Positions 5,518 through 30,309 of a stretch of 32,000 bases of DNA are shown here, piece by piece. Under the pieces are notes generated by a model that worked only from the letters and a program-made list of their open reading frames with translations, made no database searches and was not told the DNA's origin. The DNA comes from Opitutales bacterium (GTDB lineage: Bacteria; Verrucomicrobiota; Verrucomicrobiia; Opitutales; UBA9783), in NCBI GenBank assembly GCA_046881885.1, contig JBKSMP010000024.1, positions 60,001 to 92,000 on the forward strand, read 5' to 3'. The translations under genes were made by a program, and so were the position numbers. Every line of letters begins with the position of its first letter. Position 1 is the stretch's first letter.

Positions 5518-6116
5518 TGAAATAAGGCTTGAAAACTTTCTAAACCAAAAGAACAGATCCAGAAAGCTGCAAATCCGTAAAGACTAACAGCTACGATGGA
5601 AATGATTTGCGAACATAAGAGTAATAATCCATCATTTTCTAGCAAACCTAATCCAAACAGCAAAATAATGCCCGCAGGGAGCGTATTGGTTAAAGGGATC
5701 GGCATCGCCATAATAAGCGACAACACCATAATATTTAACCCAATAATACGGTAATTAAAAATCCAAAGCAGCTTTTGGCAACGTTCTACACGTGTAAAAA
5801 ACTCCAAAACTTGTAGCATTTTAACACCACAATGGATGATTTTAGGCGATAACGAAAATTCTTTTTGTTCCCATTTTTCAGGAAGTTGAATTTGTTTTTC
5901 GCCCCTAAAAAGTAAGTATCCAATCCAACCCAACAAGAGTCCTAAGGGGGTGCTATATCCTGGAGCAGGTACTGGCAACGCACTTGGCAAAGCAATTAAA
6001 ATAATCCAAAAACCAATCCCTTGCGTCGTTAATCGCTCCTGTAATTTTCCTAAAGACGTCTTTAAACCACCTTTGGCATCACACAACGTTAAAATTTGTT
6101 CCGAAAGCTTTGACAT
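5514..6116 (-). CDS. ExoD-like (exopolysaccharide synthesis family) integral membrane protein
   Basis: 200 aa and multi-pass hydrophobic. The block GIGFWIILIALPSALPVPAPGYSTPLGLLL..LPEKW matches my recollection of the ExoD family N-terminal signature. Confidence 0.6.
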   Translation of the reverse strand: MSKLSEQILTLCDAKGGLKTSLGKLQERLTTQGIGFWIILIALPSALPVPAPGYSTPLGLLLGWIGYLLFRGEKQIQLPEKWEQKEFSLSPKIIHCGVKMLQVLEFFTRVERCQKLLWIFNYRIIGLNIMVLSLIMAMPIPLTNTLPAGIILLFGLGLLENDGLLLLCSQIISIVAVSLYGFAAFWICSFGLESFQALFQ

Positions 6117-6708: not shown

Positions 6709-7647
6709 ATGCATTCGGAAAAAGTAGTGATTATAGGTAGTGGATGTGCAGGACTTTCTGCAGCTATTTACACAGCTAGAGCTCAATTAAATCCATTGGT
6801 TATCTCTGGAGATTTACCAGGTGGCTTGCTAACACAAACGACAGAGATTGAGAATTTTCCTGGATTTCCTGAAAAAATTCAAGGTATGGAACTGATGGAT
6901 CGTATGCGTCAACAAGCAGAAAAATTTGGTGCGCGATTTAAAGATGGGACTGTTCAACAGGTAGAGCTCATAGGCCAACAAAAGCAATTATCTTTATCAA
7001 ATGGAGAAAAATTACTAGCAGATGCTGTCATTTTCGCAGTAGGTTCACATCCGAGTTCGCTTAACTTGCCATTAGAACGCGAACTTTTAGGCGGTAAAGG
7101 TCTTAGTGTATGTGCGACATGTGATGGGTTTTTCTATCGCAATGAAGTTGTGTGTATTGTCGGCGGTGGAGACTCTGCTTGCGAGGAAGCCCTTTATTTA
7201 AGTAAGCTATGTAAAAAAGTTTACTTAATTCATCGTAGAGATACCTTACGTGCTTCCAAAATTATGGCCAATCGCGTCTGTTCTAACGAAAACATCGAAG
7301 TCGTTTGGAATCATGCTCCCGAAAAGTTTGAAGTCGATGAAAATGGCTTTTTAAAAGCTTTTGTTGTCAAACATACGCAAGAAAACACAAGCAGAACTAT
7401 CGACTGCAAAGGCGTATTTTTAGCGATTGGCTGGAAGCCTAATACCCAAGTATTTAAAGACGTATTAGATTTGGATGAACAAGGGTATATAAAAATTGCT
7501 AAGCGAGCAGTTTGTACGGCTATTCCAGGTGTTTTTGCTGCAGGTGACTGCGTCGATCATTTTTATCGTCAAGCAGCTGTAGCAGCAGGCATGGGTATTC
7601 AAGCAGCTTTGGAAGCGGAATCTTGGTTAATAAAAGGCAATGAATAA
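6709..7647 (+). CDS. trxB: Thioredoxin-disulfide reductase
   Basis: FAD motif IIGSGCAG, redox-active CATCDG, NADPH motif GGGDSACEEA, and C-terminal GVFAAGD. AAGGAG at 6693-6698 sits 10 nt before the ATG at 6709, so that ATG is preferred over the TTG at 6685. Confidence 0.93.
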   Translation: MHSEKVVIIGSGCAGLSAAIYTARAQLNPLVISGDLPGGLLTQTTEIENFPGFPEKIQGMELMDRMRQQAEKFGARFKDGTVQQVELIGQQKQLSLSNGEKLLADAVIFAVGSHPSSLNLPLERELLGGKGLSVCATCDGFFYRNEVVCIVGGGDSACEEALYLSKLCKKVYLIHRRDTLRASKIMANRVCSNENIEVVWNHAPEKFEVDENGFLKAFVVKHTQENTSRTIDCKGVFLAIGWKPNTQVFKDVLDLDEQGYIKIAKRAVCTAIPGVFAAGDCVDHFYRQAAVAAGMGIQAALEAESWLIKGNE

Positions 7648-25863: not shown

Positions 25864-26048
25864 ATTTTTTCCTTCCTTGGTTTTAAATTTATAAGAGGGA
25901 AAAAGGATCAATTATTTTTTAACCTGTCAATCTATTTTTTATCAAAATTTGCAAGTTCAACTGTGAAGTGCAACACGAAGAGTAAAAAGGTTGAGAAAAG
26001 CAAGAAGAGATGTGAAGATAACATAAAAAAGAAACATATACCCCAAAT

Positions 26049-26846
26049 TTATTTATTATCCACAACGCTATTTTTAAAACATCCAAAAAACTTTTGGACA
26101 TTCATTTTAAGTTGTTCACAACATTGCTCATAGGAAACATTTTTTATTTCAGCTAATTTTTCCACAACATAACGAACATATTCTGGAGAATTTGTTTTGC
26201 CACGGTATGGAACAGGCGCTAAATAAGGTGTATCTGTTTCTACAAAAATCCTATCCAAGGATGCCAATTGAGCTGTTTTGAGCGTAAATCCTGGCTTTTT
26301 AAACGTAAGAATTCCGGAATAAGATAAGTAACCACCTTGGGACAAAATCCATTCTGCTGCAGTTTCATCCTCAACAAAACAATGAAACATAACCCGCGAA
26401 AGATCTATCTTGGAATAAATAAGAATTTCTTTTAATATTGTAAATGCATCACGACAATGAATAACAACGGGCAAATTTTTCCGTTTTGCCAGTGCAAGTT
26501 GCCGTTCAAACACCTTCATTTGTAATTTCAAGGTTTGCGCATGTTTTATGTCAAAAATTCGATTAAAATCAAGACCTATTTCCCCCAGCGCAACTGCCCG
26601 ATCCAAATAATTTTCTAAACAAGCTAAATCGTCTTCCCACTGTTCCGTAATTTCTAAAGGATGAATTCCATAACAAACTTTTAATTGTGGAAATTGCGAC
26701 GCTAACTGAGCATAAAATGGCCAATCCTCCCTACACGGGCCCGAAGCTATCACACCACGTAAACCTTTTTCAGTCAGTGATGACAAAAATCTTACCACTC
26801 CCTCTTCACCTAAATGCTCCAAATGACAATGCGCGTCTATTAACAT
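26049..26846 (-). CDS. TatD family metal-dependent hydrolase (DNase)
   Basis: MLIDAHCHL, GEIGLD, PVVIHCRDA and FVETDTPYL blocks are typical of TatD/YcfH. Confidence 0.9.
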   Translation of the reverse strand: MLIDAHCHLEHLGEEGVVRFLSSLTEKGLRGVIASGPCREDWPFYAQLASQFPQLKVCYGIHPLEITEQWEDDLACLENYLDRAVALGEIGLDFNRIFDIKHAQTLKLQMKVFERQLALAKRKNLPVVIHCRDAFTILKEILIYSKIDLSRVMFHCFVEDETAAEWILSQGGYLSYSGILTFKKPGFTLKTAQLASLDRIFVETDTPYLAPVPYRGKTNSPEYVRYVVEKLAEIKNVSYEQCCEQLKMNVQKFFGCFKNSVVDNK

Positions 26847-26928
26847 CTTATCGAAGCTAAATTTAAACCAAATTTATCCAAGAAGAGTCAAGCAAAAACC
26901 TTTGTTGCCAAACATAGATAGAATGCCC

Positions 26929-27060
26929 CAAAAACAATAAAAAGGAGAATGCATTCTCCGTCTACGCCACCCTCCAGGCGAATTTAGCTTACTTGCCAAC
27001 GTTTCAACTTTTTTCGTACTTTTATGAAGCGAAACAATTTTTACCAATCACTTATCATCG
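26929..27060. repeat. Copy A of the conserved non-coding cassette-flank repeat (right-hand part)
   Basis: About 130 nt nearly identical to 28966-29097, with roughly one mismatch per 8-10 nt by eye. It includes the GGAGAATGCATTCTCC palindrome and ends in caatcacttatcatc, which supplies the last codons and stop of the adjacent ORF in both copies. Confidence 0.8.
26931..26959 (-). terminator. Rho-independent terminator within repeat copy A
   Basis: Palindrome ggagaatgcattctcc (26944-26959), followed on the minus strand by tttttattgttttt. Confidence 0.6.
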
Positions 27061-27244
27061 CTCGTGGCTTTGATGTCAAAACGGCTGCTTTTGTCATTCT
27101 TCAAAATCTTATCGATTTCAGGATTATTCAAAGTTAACGATTGAATGTGTGGCTGCCTTTTGAGCAAAACTTCAATAAGGAAATCAACTGCGGTTTCCCC
27201 TCTTCCGTTCCAAAGATTTTCTTAAAAACGAAATCTAATTTCAA
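27048..27244 (-). pseudogene. Rpn-family (PD-(D/E)XK nuclease / putative transposase, TIGR01784-like) N-terminal fragment, frameshifted and truncated
   Basis: Hand translation gives (TTG)KLDFVFKKIFGTEEGK.. in one frame and ..AVDFLIEVLLKRQPHIQSLTLNNPEIDKILKNDKSSRFDIKATSDDK* in another. Together they reproduce the family N-terminus (DfvFKkiFg...l.sfLn.iL.....i..v.l.n.e......dK.s.lDi.a). The remaining roughly 200 aa are missing. Confidence 0.6.
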
Positions 27245-27332
27245 GTTTCCATAGTCTATTCTTTATATCTTAGTCTACCTACTTTGCCTTTTCAACGTTT
27301 CTTGTAGAAATTCTCATGGCAAATGAAAATTT

Positions 27333-28328
27333 TCAAATCTTATTCAAAACGGAAACGATAATGCGTTTCATGGTTTCTTTTTCGTCCATTTTGCTTTCAG
27401 CGACAAGGAGCGTTAAGGCAAATAAGGTACCATCGTTTAAAACCGGAAGATTGTTTTTATAAAGGATACCATTTTTTTGTAAAAAGTATAAAAAACAAGC
27501 GGCTGCGATACGTTTATTACCATCGACAAAAGAATGATTTTTGACAATCAAATAAAGCAACATTGCGGCTTTTTCTTCAATCGATGGATAACATTCTTCA
27601 CCAAAAGCAGTTTGATAAATCTGCCGTACGGAACTATTAAAGCTTTCGTCCTTTGGGGCTCCAAATAAGTCGCTAGAAAAACGCGAACGCATGCTTTTAA
27701 CAACCGACAAGAATTCTTCTGGCTCAATAACAACGGCGTTTTTTATAGTAATTCCTTTATCGTTGAGCTGCTTATGGTCGTAATCATCCAACAAATCTAG
27801 GTCGTTTGCAAAATCCTTTAAAAAATCATAGAGCTTTTGTTTATCTTCTAATGAAAGATTCGTTTGACGCTCAATTAACTGAATTGCTGTTTTTAAAGCC
27901 AAAAAATTCTTTTTTTGCTGCTTAAGTGCTTGCTGGTTGAGTACATAACCTTGCTTTAAATACTGCTTTAAAACATCCGTTGCCCACTGACGAAATTGGG
28001 TCGCTTTCTTCGAATTAACCCGGTAACCAACCGCAATAATCGCATCTAGATTATAAAATTTTGTATGATAATTTTTACCATCAGAAGCAGGTGTCAAGAA
28101 ATCCTTTACAACTAAATTTTCTGTCAATTCTTTTTCCACAAAAATATTACGTAAATGTTGACTAATGTTCTGTTTGGTTGTCGCAAATAACTCCGCAATT
28201 TGGTTTTGTTTCAACCAGATTGTTTCCTGTTGAAACCGAGCGTTGATGCTAATTTTCCCATCTTCTTCTTTATAAATAACAATGTCGCTTTTTGTTTCCA
28301 TGCACTCTATATTAGTAAATTTATACAA
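27333..28328 (-). CDS. RhuM-family N-terminal domain fused to a Fic/Doc domain protein
   Basis: The N-terminal half KSDIVIYKEEDGKISINARFQQETIWLKQNQIAELF..TKQNISQHLRNIF...YNLDAIIAVGYRVNSKKATQFRQWAT is the RhuM signature. The C-terminal EEKAAMLLYLIVKNHSFVDGNKRIAAACFLYFL is the Doc-type Fic motif H-x-F-x-D-G-N-K-R. Confidence 0.8.
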   Translation of the reverse strand: MYKFTNIECMETKSDIVIYKEEDGKISINARFQQETIWLKQNQIAELFATTKQNISQHLRNIFVEKELTENLVVKDFLTPASDGKNYHTKFYNLDAIIAVGYRVNSKKATQFRQWATDVLKQYLKQGYVLNQQALKQQKKNFLALKTAIQLIERQTNLSLEDKQKLYDFLKDFANDLDLLDDYDHKQLNDKGITIKNAVVIEPEEFLSVVKSMRSRFSSDLFGAPKDESFNSSVRQIYQTAFGEECYPSIEEKAAMLLYLIVKNHSFVDGNKRIAAACFLYFLQKNGILYKNNLPVLNDGTLFALTLLVAESKMDEKETMKRIIVSVLNKI

Positions 28329-28363
28329 AATCAGTTTAAAAGTCTTTTTATAAGCAATAGTTG

Positions 28364-28612
28364 TTATTCATAATGTCCCCAACACTTAAGAAGCCTGATT
28401 GTATCACCTTTAATTTCATAAACCAATCTATGTTGTACATTGATTCTTCTAGAATATCTTGATGGGTGGCCGGCAAGCTTTTCATAAGGCGGAGGTATTT
28501 GATAAGGATCTTTTTTTATAATATGTAAAAGATTTTCTAGTTTGTTTGTAAAGCCAGCTTGTTTTGCTTTGATGAAATCTTTTTTGAATACACTTCCAAA
28601 GTTTATGATCAT
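28364..28612 (-). CDS. YoeB/Txe family type II toxin
   Basis: PYEKLAGHPSRYSRRINVQHRLVYEIKGDTIRLLKCWGHYE matches the YoeB C-terminal signature (ySrRI...HRLvY.....i.i..c.gHY). 4-nt overlap with the upstream antitoxin. Confidence 0.8.
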   Translation of the reverse strand: MIINFGSVFKKDFIKAKQAGFTNKLENLLHIIKKDPYQIPPPYEKLAGHPSRYSRRINVQHRLVYEIKGDTIRLLKCWGHYE

Positions 28613-28857
28613 AAATTTAAATCATTAATCATTTCATCAACATTATCGTAAGATTTAGCCTTACCGCTAGCGATTTCCCTGTCTAACTGTTCACTTACGG
28701 CATTAAGTTCTTCTATTGGATAAACATGATTTTCCTCATCGTTATATATTTTGCTTTCAATATAACGACTAACACTTAATTGCCTTTTTTTTGCTTCACG
28801 TTTTACAAATTCTTTAACACAAGGTCTTACTGTAATACATAATTGTACGGTTGCCAT
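28609..28857 (-). CDS. Ribbon-helix-helix type antitoxin
   Basis: The N-terminal beta strand plus two helices (VQLCITVRPCVKEFVKREAKKRQLSVSRYIESKI) and an acidic C-terminal tail, with position and overlap relative to the toxin. Paralogous to 29326-29583. Confidence 0.65.
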   Translation of the reverse strand: MATVQLCITVRPCVKEFVKREAKKRQLSVSRYIESKIYNDEENHVYPIEELNAVSEQLDREIASGKAKSYDNVDEMINDLNL

Positions 28858-28912
28858 AATATAATAAGAATATAATTATATTATAAAGTCAATATGGAAA
28901 TTCATTAAAAAA

Positions 28913-29097
28913 CCTTCCAGCGCTTATATAACCTAGAAAAATAAAGGGTAAAAAACCACCCCATAAAAAACAACAAAAAGGAGAATGCATTCTCCGTCTA
29001 CACCACCCTCCAGGCAAATTTAGCTTGCTTGCCAACGTTTCAACTTTTTTCGGAGTTTTATTGTGCACAACAACTTTTCCCAATCACTTATCATCAT
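28913..29097. repeat. Copy B (full length) of the conserved non-coding cassette-flank repeat
   Basis: The left part (28913-28979) matches 29679-29752. The right part (28966-29097) matches 26929-27060. It contains the GGAGAATGCATTCTCC palindrome at 28980-28995. Confidence 0.8.
28964..28995 (-). terminator. Rho-independent terminator within repeat copy B
   Basis: Palindrome ggagaatgcattctcc, followed on the minus strand by tttttgttgtttttt. It lies about 90 nt downstream of the toxin stop at 29084. Confidence 0.6.
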
Positions 29098-29326
29098 AGT
29101 GGCCGCGACAGGAGATTAATACAATTAAATCATCAAACCGATCATAAATAAGTCGATTTTTGCGATCAATTCTTGCGGAATATCGCTTAGGGGCATATTT
29201 TAATTTTTCGCCTTTATTAAAAATAAAAGTACGATCCGTAACAATATTTTCTATAATACGCTTTACTTTTTTATAAAGCGCTGGCGAATTTTTTAACAAC
29301 CAGGAATAATTGTTCAACAAATTCAT
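29084..29326 (-). CDS. YoeB/Txe-like type II toxin (second, divergent copy)
   Basis: YSWLL....YKKVKRIIENI...GEKLKYAPKRYSARIDRKNRLIYDRFDDLIVLISCRGHY follows the YoeB pattern. 1-nt stop/start overlap with the antitoxin. Confidence 0.7.
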   Translation of the reverse strand: MNLLNNYSWLLKNSPALYKKVKRIIENIVTDRTFIFNKGEKLKYAPKRYSARIDRKNRLIYDRFDDLIVLISCRGHYDDK

Positions 29327-29583
29327 CAGATCTTTTTAATTTCATGATCTAAATCTGAAAAAAATTCATCTAAATTATCGTAAGTTTTATTATTAGGATC
29401 CTCTAGCGTTTTTTGAGAAATACGGTCGGCTTCCGCCTTGGTAATTACGAAATTTTCTTCCATATCTTTTTCTATCAGTCGAGCCACATAACCTGAGTAC
29501 GATAATTGTTTTTGTTTTGCTTTCATTTTTATCCACTCAAATAAATTGGGCTTCAGATTTACGGACATTTGCAAGGCTTTCAT
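29326..29583 (-). CDS. Ribbon-helix-helix type antitoxin (second copy)
   Basis: LQMSVNLKPNLFEWIKMKAKQKQLSYSGYVARLIEKD plus the ..KTYDNLDEFFSDL tail, alignable with the 28609-28857 product at motif level. Confidence 0.6.
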   Translation of the reverse strand: MKALQMSVNLKPNLFEWIKMKAKQKQLSYSGYVARLIEKDMEENFVITKAEADRISQKTLEDPNNKTYDNLDEFFSDLDHEIKKI

Positions 29584-29589
29584 ACATTA

Positions 29590-29619
29590 CTTATACTGTA
29601 TTTATACATTACTTGTCAA
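29590..29619 (-). promoter_or_regulatory. Sigma-70-like promoter giving an essentially leaderless antitoxin mRNA
   Basis: On the minus strand: TTGACA (29619-29614), an 18-nt spacer, and TATAAG (29595-29590), then 6 nt to the ATG at 29583. No Shine-Dalgarno sequence. Confidence 0.45.
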
Positions 29620-29678
29620 GTGAAAACGGCATTTACACTTTTTTAATTTAATAATCTCCACCTAATCCAAGCAAACAT

Positions 29679-29768
29679 CCTTCCACACTCCAGCGCTTAT
29701 ATAACCTAGAAGAATAAAGGGTAAAAAAAGCCCCCACTAAAAACAATAAAAAGGAGAATGCCTTCTCC
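29679..29768. repeat. Copy C of the cassette-flank repeat (left-hand part plus hairpin)
   Basis: ccttcc..agcgcttatataacctagaagaataaagggtaaaaaaa...aaaaacaataaaaaggagaatgccttctcc aligns with 28913-28995. Confidence 0.75.
29739..29768 (-). terminator. Rho-independent terminator of the pseudopilin gene (within repeat copy C)
   Basis: ggagaa-tgcc-ttctcc, followed on the minus strand by tttttattgttttt, 29 nt after the stop at 29797. Confidence 0.6.
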
Positions 29769-29796
29769 TTTTCTCTCTATAAAAATTCTCTCTAGA

Positions 29797-30309
29797 TTAC
29801 AAACGGAGTTTTACCCAACGAGTACCAACTTTTATAAACAAACCTTGTGTATCTTCTGTTAATATTGAGTCTCCTTGAGCGTTTTTTAGTTCTTGGTCGT
29901 CACCACCCTCCATTTCATTAGTTGTAAATGTGCTGATTGTAATCGCACCTTCTTGCTTAGAATCATCTGAAACGTATATACCTATCTCATCATAGTTTTC
30001 TTCAGCAATCTGTTGAATAACACTTGTATAACCTTCGTTAGTTCCTTTTACTACCCCTGTTTTAGGCTTCCAAGCAACAATATCCGTTGCTTTAACTGAA
30101 GTTACCCCATTTTCAAGCATATACTGCTGAGCAGCACCCCAGACCTGGCGCAAATTATTTCTAATAGAAGTTTCCAGAGCCTTCCAACGTGCTCTTTGGA
30201 ACGCTGGCACGGCGAGAGACGCCAAAATACCGATGATCGTTACCACGATCATAATTTCAACAAGTGTAAAACCGAGAATCTTTTTTTGTAATCCTTTTTT
30301 CATATGCAT
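29797..30309 (-). CDS. Prepilin-type N-terminal cleavage/methylation domain protein (GspG/pseudopilin-like)
   Basis: KKILGFTLVEIMIVVTIIGILASLAVPAFQRAR is a canonical class III signal plus the pilin N-terminal helix. Confidence 0.85.
   Translation of the reverse strand: MHMKKGLQKKILGFTLVEIMIVVTIIGILASLAVPAFQRARWKALETSIRNNLRQVWGAAQQYMLENGVTSVKATDIVAWKPKTGVVKGTNEGYTSVIQQIAEENYDEIGIYVSDDSKQEGAITISTFTTNEMEGGDDQELKNAQGDSILTEDTQGLFIKVGTRWVKLRL

Follow-up and report, generated by a model that had tools for sequence, protein, structure and literature searches.

Origin of a hairpin-bearing spacer repeated around two toxin-antitoxin modules in a small Opitutales genome

Why should the DNA that separates two toxin-antitoxin (TA) modules be far more alike than the modules themselves? 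The question is raised by a locus of an Opitutales bacterium, at which three copies of one non-coding element (A, B and C) accompany two pairs of genes for a ribbon-helix-helix (RHH) antitoxin and a YoeB-family toxin: within the genome the flanks are 88-90% alike, the cargo about 30%. The DNA under study, hereafter the window, is a stretch of 32,000 nucleotides (nt) (contig JBKSMP010000024.1, here C24, positions 60001-92000) of a 984-kb genome (GCA_046881885.1, here G000) assembled in 28 contigs and 96% complete; the organism is a gut bacterium with a small genome (~1 Mb), probably associated with protists. Every gene between 26 and 32 kb of the window is encoded on the minus strand. Reading along the genes, one meets dprA, the gene of a metallo-beta-lactamase (MBL)-fold hydrolase, a pseudopilin-like gene, copy C of the repeat, the antitoxin-toxin pair AT2-T2, copy B, the pair AT1-T1, a RhuM/Bro-N-Fic gene, a fragment of an Rpn nuclease gene, copy A and tatD.

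The initial annotation of this DNA took the contrast between flanks and cargo for the hallmark of a recombination-site-delimited cassette and compared the locus with integron arrays. The explanation towards which we lean, on a balance that is favourable but far from firm, is a different one: the repeat would be the tail of a T2-type TA module, spread by local duplication and by homology- and microhomology-driven reshuffling of a decaying island.

Anatomy and distribution of the repeat

The copies were compared by a repeat search and by blastn, with E values calculated against the whole genome. Read in gene direction, the unit consists of a toxin's last three codons and stop, approximately 90 nt of 3' untranslated DNA upstream of a hairpin (part U), the hairpin (HP) with its T-run and approximately 65-115 nt of downstream spacer (part D). 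All parts are found together in copy B (28916-29095, minus strand; detected by the repeat search, blastn and the terminator call), in which the last three codons and stop of T2 occupy 29084-29095, U 28996-29083, HP 28980-28995 and D 28916-28979, the latter with a second small hairpin at 28945-28962. Copy A (26930-27059, minus strand) comprises a T2-type toxin tail (Asp-Asp-Lys and stop), U, HP (26944-26959) and the T-run without D, and is 90% identical to 28966-29095 over 130 nt (E 1e-45). Copy C (29689-29768, minus strand) comprises HP (29753-29768) and D without U, and is 90% identical to 28916-28995 over 80 nt (E 3e-25). Copies C and A have only the hairpin and T-run in common (29739-29768 and 26930-26959, 29/30 positions). 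The three same-strand copies described initially, with B sharing one end with C and the other with A, were in this way confirmed.

On the plus strand the palindrome reads GGAGAATGCATTCTCC at both 26944-26959 and 28980-28995 and GGAGAATGCCTTCTCC at 29753-29768 of copy C, the hairpin of which is also noted as GGAGAAGGCATTCTCC and has an 11-bp stem if its A/T flanks are counted. The geometry is that of a 6-bp stem and a 4-nt loop (6-4-6; 10-4-10 in copy C) followed by the T-run, and all three hairpins scored as terminator-like on the minus (gene) strand, as the initial annotation had proposed. From a G+C-containing stem-loop with a T-run, placed downstream of a gene and on the gene strand, as in Rho-independent terminators, we infer that the most likely role of the hairpin is to terminate transcription, and not to serve a recombinase as its site. 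That of copy C, upstream of the array, would be the terminator of the pseudopilin gene.

Little else could be recognized within the unit. Neither U nor D gave a convincing match to a promoter of the sigma-54 or sigma-70 type, and the TA promoters and operators sit in unique DNA beyond D. Rfam returned no family at gathering thresholds for the whole window, and only a chance Histone3 match (E 0.87) when E values up to 1 were admitted for 26850-29850; the window contains no tRNA or tmRNA attachment site. Small open reading frames (ORFs) within the repeat (57 and 64 aa, minus strand, and a hydrophobic one of 33 aa starting in the hairpin) were rejected, their start being absent from copy C and the sequence of copy A being no longer conserved beyond the hairpin. 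Terminal inverted repeats are missing from the unit, which occupies a single locus and is thus neither a miniature inverted-repeat transposable element (MITE) nor a dispersed repeat.

The hairpin pattern occurs three times in the genome, exactly in the three copies, and the repeat as a whole is confined to this one locus, besides a partial match of 34-37 nt on C9. The latter (G000:C9:2727-2763; L004:1501-1537) lies between tsf and ligA and matches the middle of U with 89-91% identity (TTAGCTTGCTTGCCAAC...TTTTTTCGTAC; E 3e-6 against the genome). Relatives were searched in 21 genomes of the family and, with exact patterns, in 185,579 species genomes and in the metagenome contigs of the Joint Genome Institute (JGI). 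Among the family genomes, the repeat was found only in the metagenome-assembled genome (MAG) of a sister species (G001, deposited as uncultured Opitutales bacterium MAG), at the same locus and in the same gene order, and no trace of it was detected in G002, of the same genus. The exact 22-nt pattern from D matched G001 alone among the species genomes, and the exact hairpin-core and U-core patterns matched no JGI contig. Outside G000 and G001, the spacer is carried by the contig pair L043/L044 (L-numbers denote related metagenome contigs). An integron has the same site bounding many unrelated cassettes; here there are three copies at one locus, in relatives tied to that same locus alone, and the integron-like reading fails on this point. 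Confinement to the three places and, in relatives, to the one locus are two of the findings that the initial annotation had named in advance as refuting its reading. Nothing specific to such an arrangement was found in the literature.

Flanks, cargo and the origin of the spacer

The cargo consists of two predicted type II TA modules of the YoeB/Txe kind, for which toxicity and neutralization are predicted from sequence. AT2 (29326-29583, minus strand; 85 aa) is an RHH/CopG-like antitoxin with a weak CopG_antitoxin match, its DNA being 95% identical to that of L043 and 98% to that of G001; T2 (29084-29345, minus strand) matches Pfam YoeB_toxin with 41 bits. AT1 (28609-28857, minus strand; 82 aa) is an RHH-type antitoxin with its own palindromic operator and promoter at approximately 28851-28900, beyond the repeat, and T1 (28364-28612, minus strand; 82 aa) scores 40.2 bits, so that both toxins exceed the 27-bit cut-off of the family. 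Each antitoxin gene stands directly upstream of its toxin gene, with overlaps of 1 nt (AT2/T2) and 4 nt (AT1/T1). T1 is intact, whereas T2 carries a 1-nt insertion near codon 14 that shifts its native start (MKLKRSDEFVEQL..., at approximately 29345) out of frame, as seen by comparison with the DNA of L043 and L041, and an 80-aa ORF restarts at 29326 (29326-29084).

The two antitoxins are identical at 28/88 positions (32%), the two toxins at 26/86 (30%), and the DNA of the two modules can be aligned over 43 nt only, which bears out the initial statement that the pairs are alignable only at motif level. By sequence, T1 and T2 fall into separate YoeB subfamilies and are each more closely related to proteins found elsewhere; they do not form a diverged duplicate pair. 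The family of T2 is small, with 17 clusters among 5.8 billion proteins. The closest relatives of T1 outside the clade (62%; L061-L066) are found on contigs with T7-like capsid and head-tail connector genes, and relatives of T2 (66%; L051-L053) adjoin a Mu-like prophage protease, which suggests a phage origin of both module types.

The nature of U became apparent from the T2 family itself. All full-length homologues (86-87 aa) terminate with GHY(D/E)DK and the stop, so the Asp-Asp-Lys and stop that open the repeat are the toxin's own end. Furthermore, the corresponding units AT2'-T2'-U'-HP'-D' are contiguous in L043 and L044, two independent assemblies, with 91% identity to window 29620-28951. 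These sequences show U to be the native 3' flank of the T2-type toxin. The L043 hairpin reads GAAGAAAGTATTCTTC, a two-sided change from GGAGAA/TTCTCC to GAAGAA/TTCTTC preserving the stem, and a third module type, AT3-T3, comes after T2 and the spacer.

Comparison between lineages reverses the contrast seen within the genome. Between G000 and L043, identity is 95.3% for AT2 and 94.7% for T2, versus 76.7% for U, 75% for the hairpin and 64% for D. The spacer is thus under weak constraint and diverges more quickly than the genes, the reverse of what is expected of a conserved recombination site. Because it diverges so fast between lineages, the likeness of the flanks within the genome must be young, by duplication or gene conversion. 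In G001, copy C resembles the B copies (92-94% identity) more than its positional orthologue in G000 (80%). The copies do not, therefore, evolve independently, and gene conversion between them is suggested. Most likely, therefore, the flanks look more conserved in that they are young duplicates or converted copies around cargo of two anciently separated YoeB families. If this ordinary reading holds, flanks more alike than cargo can arise without a dedicated recombinase, and it is the comparison of orthologues, not of paralogues alone, that distinguishes true conserved sites from young duplicates.

Rearrangement and decay of the island

The junction between Rpn and copy A can be read to the base. 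The fragment of the Rpn gene (PD-(D/E)XK nuclease, PDDEXK_2; Pfam match to positions 16-65 only) had been noticed ahead of copy A in the initial annotation and is indeed present, with its bounds corrected to 27054-27312 (minus strand); it retains the first ~78 codons with one frameshift and is cut at GATGAT. Its identity to the full-length genes of G001 is 81%; these read ..DIKATSDDGTLF.. / ...RLDIKATSDDGTLF..., the full-length G001 protein at the breakpoint being DIKATSDD-GTLF. Homology to Rpn reaches 27054 and the repeat shared by A and B starts at 27059, leaving the six bases GATGAT (27054-27059) in common. This is a classic microhomology join, at which the final codons of a T2-type toxin meet an Rpn gene broken in its middle, and it is located away from the hairpin.

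Beyond this junction, G001 has the full Rpn gene, 118 nt and then a convergent serine recombinase remnant that is 90% identical to window 20307-20577. In G000, the remnant (20100-20582, plus strand; the C-terminal end only, with a Pfam Resolvase match to positions 110-144 only) marks the far edge of the island, and the 6.5 kb between it and Rpn hold the U and HP of copy A, tatD and OTU genes. The tatD segment (26074-26906, minus strand; ORF 26049-26846) is found elsewhere in the congeners: the same 833 nt adjoin amiA/infC in both G001 and G002 (in the latter, opp flanks them on the far side), and the G000 counterparts of these neighbours lie on contig C3. Since tatD stands beside amiA/infC in both congeners, it is tatD that moved in G000, and the ancestral order pilin-terminator-tatD reconstructed in the initial annotation is refuted; a housekeeping gene has moved into an accessory island, and has done so in the G000 lineage only. 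The last ~8 codons of tatD are replaced in G000.

Relatives show the same island in other states. In a very close relative (L041/L042; potA 96.7% identical in protein), a cut AT2 is followed by an intact T2', whose Asp-Asp-Lys and stop run straight into the last ~20 codons of T1, then by a 43-codon Fic relic and potA; L041 is without window 20239-28182, and the stretch missing from L041/L042 lies between conserved toxin 3' ends. The RhuM/Bro-N and Fic-domain gene of the window (27333-28328, minus strand; 331 aa; Pfam Virulence_RhuM, Fic and Bro-N) has an orthologue with 84% identity in L056, where it comes after AT3-T3 joined to the same T1 relic, and AT3-T3 has, to judge from this arrangement, replaced AT1 and most of T1 in the L056 lineage (a cargo swap). 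At the 3' end, T2' and T3 are identical over 24 nt (TCCTGTCGCGGCCACTATGATGAT), which accounts for recurrent joins at toxin ends. In a further contig, L097 (ERZ28593865), only the last ~25 nt of AT1 have escaped deletion, and an intact T1 (95%) and then Fic follow; this T1 would lack its cognate antitoxin, unless it is neutralized by AT2 or some other protein.

Unequal crossing-over of such TA modules is common in the family, as their sequences show. Tandem RHH-YoeB duplicates are found in sister genera (G013:C9:6561-7454, G013:C2:64163-65138 and G010:C2:74293-75045), with a spacing of 550-790 nt and 73-94% identity through the coding parts, many with internal stops. Related arrays, in which AT2-T2 precedes another RHH-YoeB pair, occupy other chromosomal places in relatives (L045-L050, L057). 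The AT2''-T2''/AT4-T4 array of L045, from an organism with deoA 88% and PriA 71% identical (tblastx), adjoins deoA and is bracketed by a 36-nt direct repeat (94%; 5605-5640 and 7164-7199) corresponding to the start of a minus-strand gene; both its toxins are frameshifted and each is then followed by a similar hairpin (AAGGGAACTTTTTGAAAAAGnTTCCCTT). In G001 also, both toxins are frameshifted and both antitoxins intact. If the ordinary reading holds, a genome of about 1 Mb keeps a small, fast-changing island, in which TA modules decay toxin first.

Competing mechanisms and neighbouring elements

According to the explanation based on reshuffling, an island of phage- or plasmid-type genes (the two TA pairs, RhuM-Fic, the Rpn nuclease and the serine recombinase remnant) would have been broken and resealed many times by the ordinary recombination of the cell: by unequal crossing-over, or by DNA that loops out and re-enters between short repeats, by gene conversion between copies and by microhomology-mediated illegitimate joins. 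Copy B would be the tail where it belongs, behind T2, copy A a T2-type tail joined to the middle of Rpn via GATGAT, and copy C the terminator and spacer half ahead of AT2. The locus then resembles tandem duplication with concerted evolution in shrinking symbiont genomes, with which it shares bracketing direct repeats, paralogous copies closer than positional orthologues, a 6-nt microhomology junction, deletions between toxin ends and true tandem TA duplicates in sister genera; it differs in its cargo, which is not a duplicate pair, so that a replacement or a separate acquisition must have taken place as well, at least once. What the sequences demonstrate is the make-up of the copies, their junctions and distribution, the relative divergence of the parts and the decay of the toxins. 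Several points weigh against this explanation. The order of events is one that we infer; copies C (HP and D) and A (U and HP) are exact complements that meet at the hairpin; the 30-nt direct repeat (29/30) that brackets the array is what insertion by a crossover in the hairpin would also give; one spacer separates T2 from two different cargoes, AT1 in G000 and AT3 in L043; and no readable junction accounts for copy C behind the pilin gene. The possibility, given initially as a weaker alternative, that repeated events at one spot duplicated the flanks is compatible with the data.

Site-specific systems are among the closest known ones with which the locus may be compared. Chromosomal integron arrays, such as the Vibrio superintegron with its VCR/attC repeats, are rich in TA cassettes, and the pdif (XerC/D) modules of Acinetobacter plasmids often carry TA pairs. 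The likeness to integron arrays lies in the co-oriented small modules, which include type II TA pairs, and in one repeated spacer that is more alike than the cargo within the genome. However, neither IntI nor attI is present here: the genome has two PF00589 matches only (on C18 and C7, presumably the housekeeping Xer pair, although they were not typed), none of which is in the window, in agreement with the lack of an integrase and of attC cores noted initially. The RYYYAAC/GTTRRRY cores are absent from all copies on either strand, the 201-nt unit folds no better than shuffled sequences (z 0.51 as RNA, 0.11 as DNA) and thus shows no attC-like fold, and there are two or three units at one locus, with a spacer that diverges faster than the cargo and junctions that are homology or microhomology joins. 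With pdif modules, the locus shares small TA-bearing units with short palindromic bounds and no recombinase gene within. A dif/pdif site, however, measures 28 bp (an 11-nt XerC arm, a 6-nt spacer and an 11-nt XerD arm), whereas the palindrome here is 6-4-6 (10-4-10 in C) with a T-run, and the sites, which are direct and chromosomal, are restricted to a single locus; the genome's own dif site was not identified. Y1 hairpin transposases of the IS200/IS605 type were not found in the genome. One intact small serine recombinase is encoded on C6 (57062-57481), besides the remnant at 20100-20582, with no hairpin site near its gene. No dedicated recombinase or site was found for the repeat. The modules themselves are comparable with YefM-YoeB and Axe-Txe in the Pfam scores of the toxins, their C-terminal GHY and the upstream, overlapping antitoxin gene; they differ in that the antitoxins are RHH/CopG-like and not YefM/Phd-like and that T2 is frameshifted near its start.

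Given these results, it is improbable that the locus belongs to a site-specific cassette system in which a recombinase supplied in trans, either a small serine recombinase or XerC/D, crosses over at the hairpin, and U-HP-D is an attC- or attP-like site of TA cassettes devoid of an integrase. Such a system would explain why complementary half-copies meet at the hairpin and why a 30-nt direct repeat brackets the array; it could draw on the symmetry of the site, which is 9-10/12 around a central GC if read as 12-2-12 (a serine recombinase crosses over at the central 2 bp of a dyad of about 26 bp), on the remnant in the window and the intact enzyme on C6, and on the stem kept through a two-sided change in L043. 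It is contradicted by the restriction to one locus, the absence of IntI, attC cores and attC fold, the faster divergence of hairpin and arms than of cargo between lineages, the lack of a hairpin-like site near the C6 recombinase (the pattern having just three occurrences genome-wide) and the location of the readable junctions away from the hairpin; moreover, stem and T-run are fully accounted for as a terminator. Harder still to credit is the more specific proposal that the dyad is the site of a trans-acting serine or Xer recombinase and U-HP-D the attachment site of trans-mobilized TA cassettes that, in reduced symbiont genomes, pile up after the terminator of a gene. If the site-specific reading were true, this would be a new kind of cassette system, integron-like without IntI or attC. 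What survives of the initial interpretation is the description of co-oriented modules split by a repeated spacer, with complementary half-copies at the ends; an integron-like system is improbable.

Copies C and B can also be obtained by homologous recombination. Whole modules (D-antitoxin-toxin-U), whose source was a circle that had looped out or a strain related to this one, may have been stacked by single or unequal crossover within the hairpin/D homology, making the array a pile of independently acquired alleles instead of the outcome of in-situ duplication followed by cargo replacement. A circle carrying U-HP-D-AT2-T2, entering a resident x-HP-D-AT1 by a single crossover, reproduces copies C and B exactly; dprA and pilin genes, of the kind that serve natural transformation, are next door, L043 has other cargo behind the same spacer and loop-out-capable tandem TA units are common in the family. 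This route, a close variant of the reshuffling explanation, is nevertheless unlikely, albeit not negligible: it needs a pre-existing resident hairpin-D, copy A still requires a separate microhomology join, no donor with these arms was found outside the clade by the exact-pattern scans, and the available data fit it and the reshuffling of the island alike. Very improbable is a functional RNA, with U kept by selection as a small RNA derived from the 3' untranslated region or as a cis-regulatory element ending at the hairpin. The position of U directly upstream of the terminator and the U-like stretch between tsf and ligA on C9 would agree with it, but no Rfam match was obtained even at E up to 1, the fold is no better than shuffled, U is 77-82% identical between lineages with adjacent coding DNA at 95%, and copy A stands behind a dead gene fragment. 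Finally, an assembler might have chained two strain alleles of one locus through the shared hairpin, as a MAG of 28 contigs and a locus polymorphic among samples could lead one to suspect. This objection has already been largely refuted: the T2-U-HP-D-AT1 junction was independently assembled at 99.5% in two other samples (L095, L096) and is also present in G001, and copies that differ by 10% are not collapsed repeats. The observation is not an assembly artefact.

As for the genes and elements around the array, the pseudopilin-like gene (29797-30309, minus strand; 170 aa; Pfam N_methyl, E 6e-7) differs between G000 and G001 more than its surroundings, with 73% identity in DNA and 66% in protein versus 91-98% for the flanking genes, and the pilin locus looks hypervariable. 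An empty site (pilin, hairpin, next gene) was not found in the relatives, among which G002 and G005 have assemblies that break immediately after the neighbouring MBL gene and G008 is without a pilin gene there.

The genuinely dispersed repeat of G000 is a different, MITE-like element of approximately 175 nt with terminal inverted repeats TCCTGCAAAAGTCG ... CGACTTTTGCAGGA, for which a transposase was not identified. It is present in at least nine full or partial copies, many at contig ends (among them C24:128604-128743, C15:28799-28938, C5:27895-28032, C26:6282-6448, C7:56251-56425 and C6:81940-82057), and also in L041 (280-470), L042 and L075 (680-790). This element cuts off the 5' part of AT2 in the close relative and reduces a YoeB-type toxin to its last 49 nt in G001:C75.

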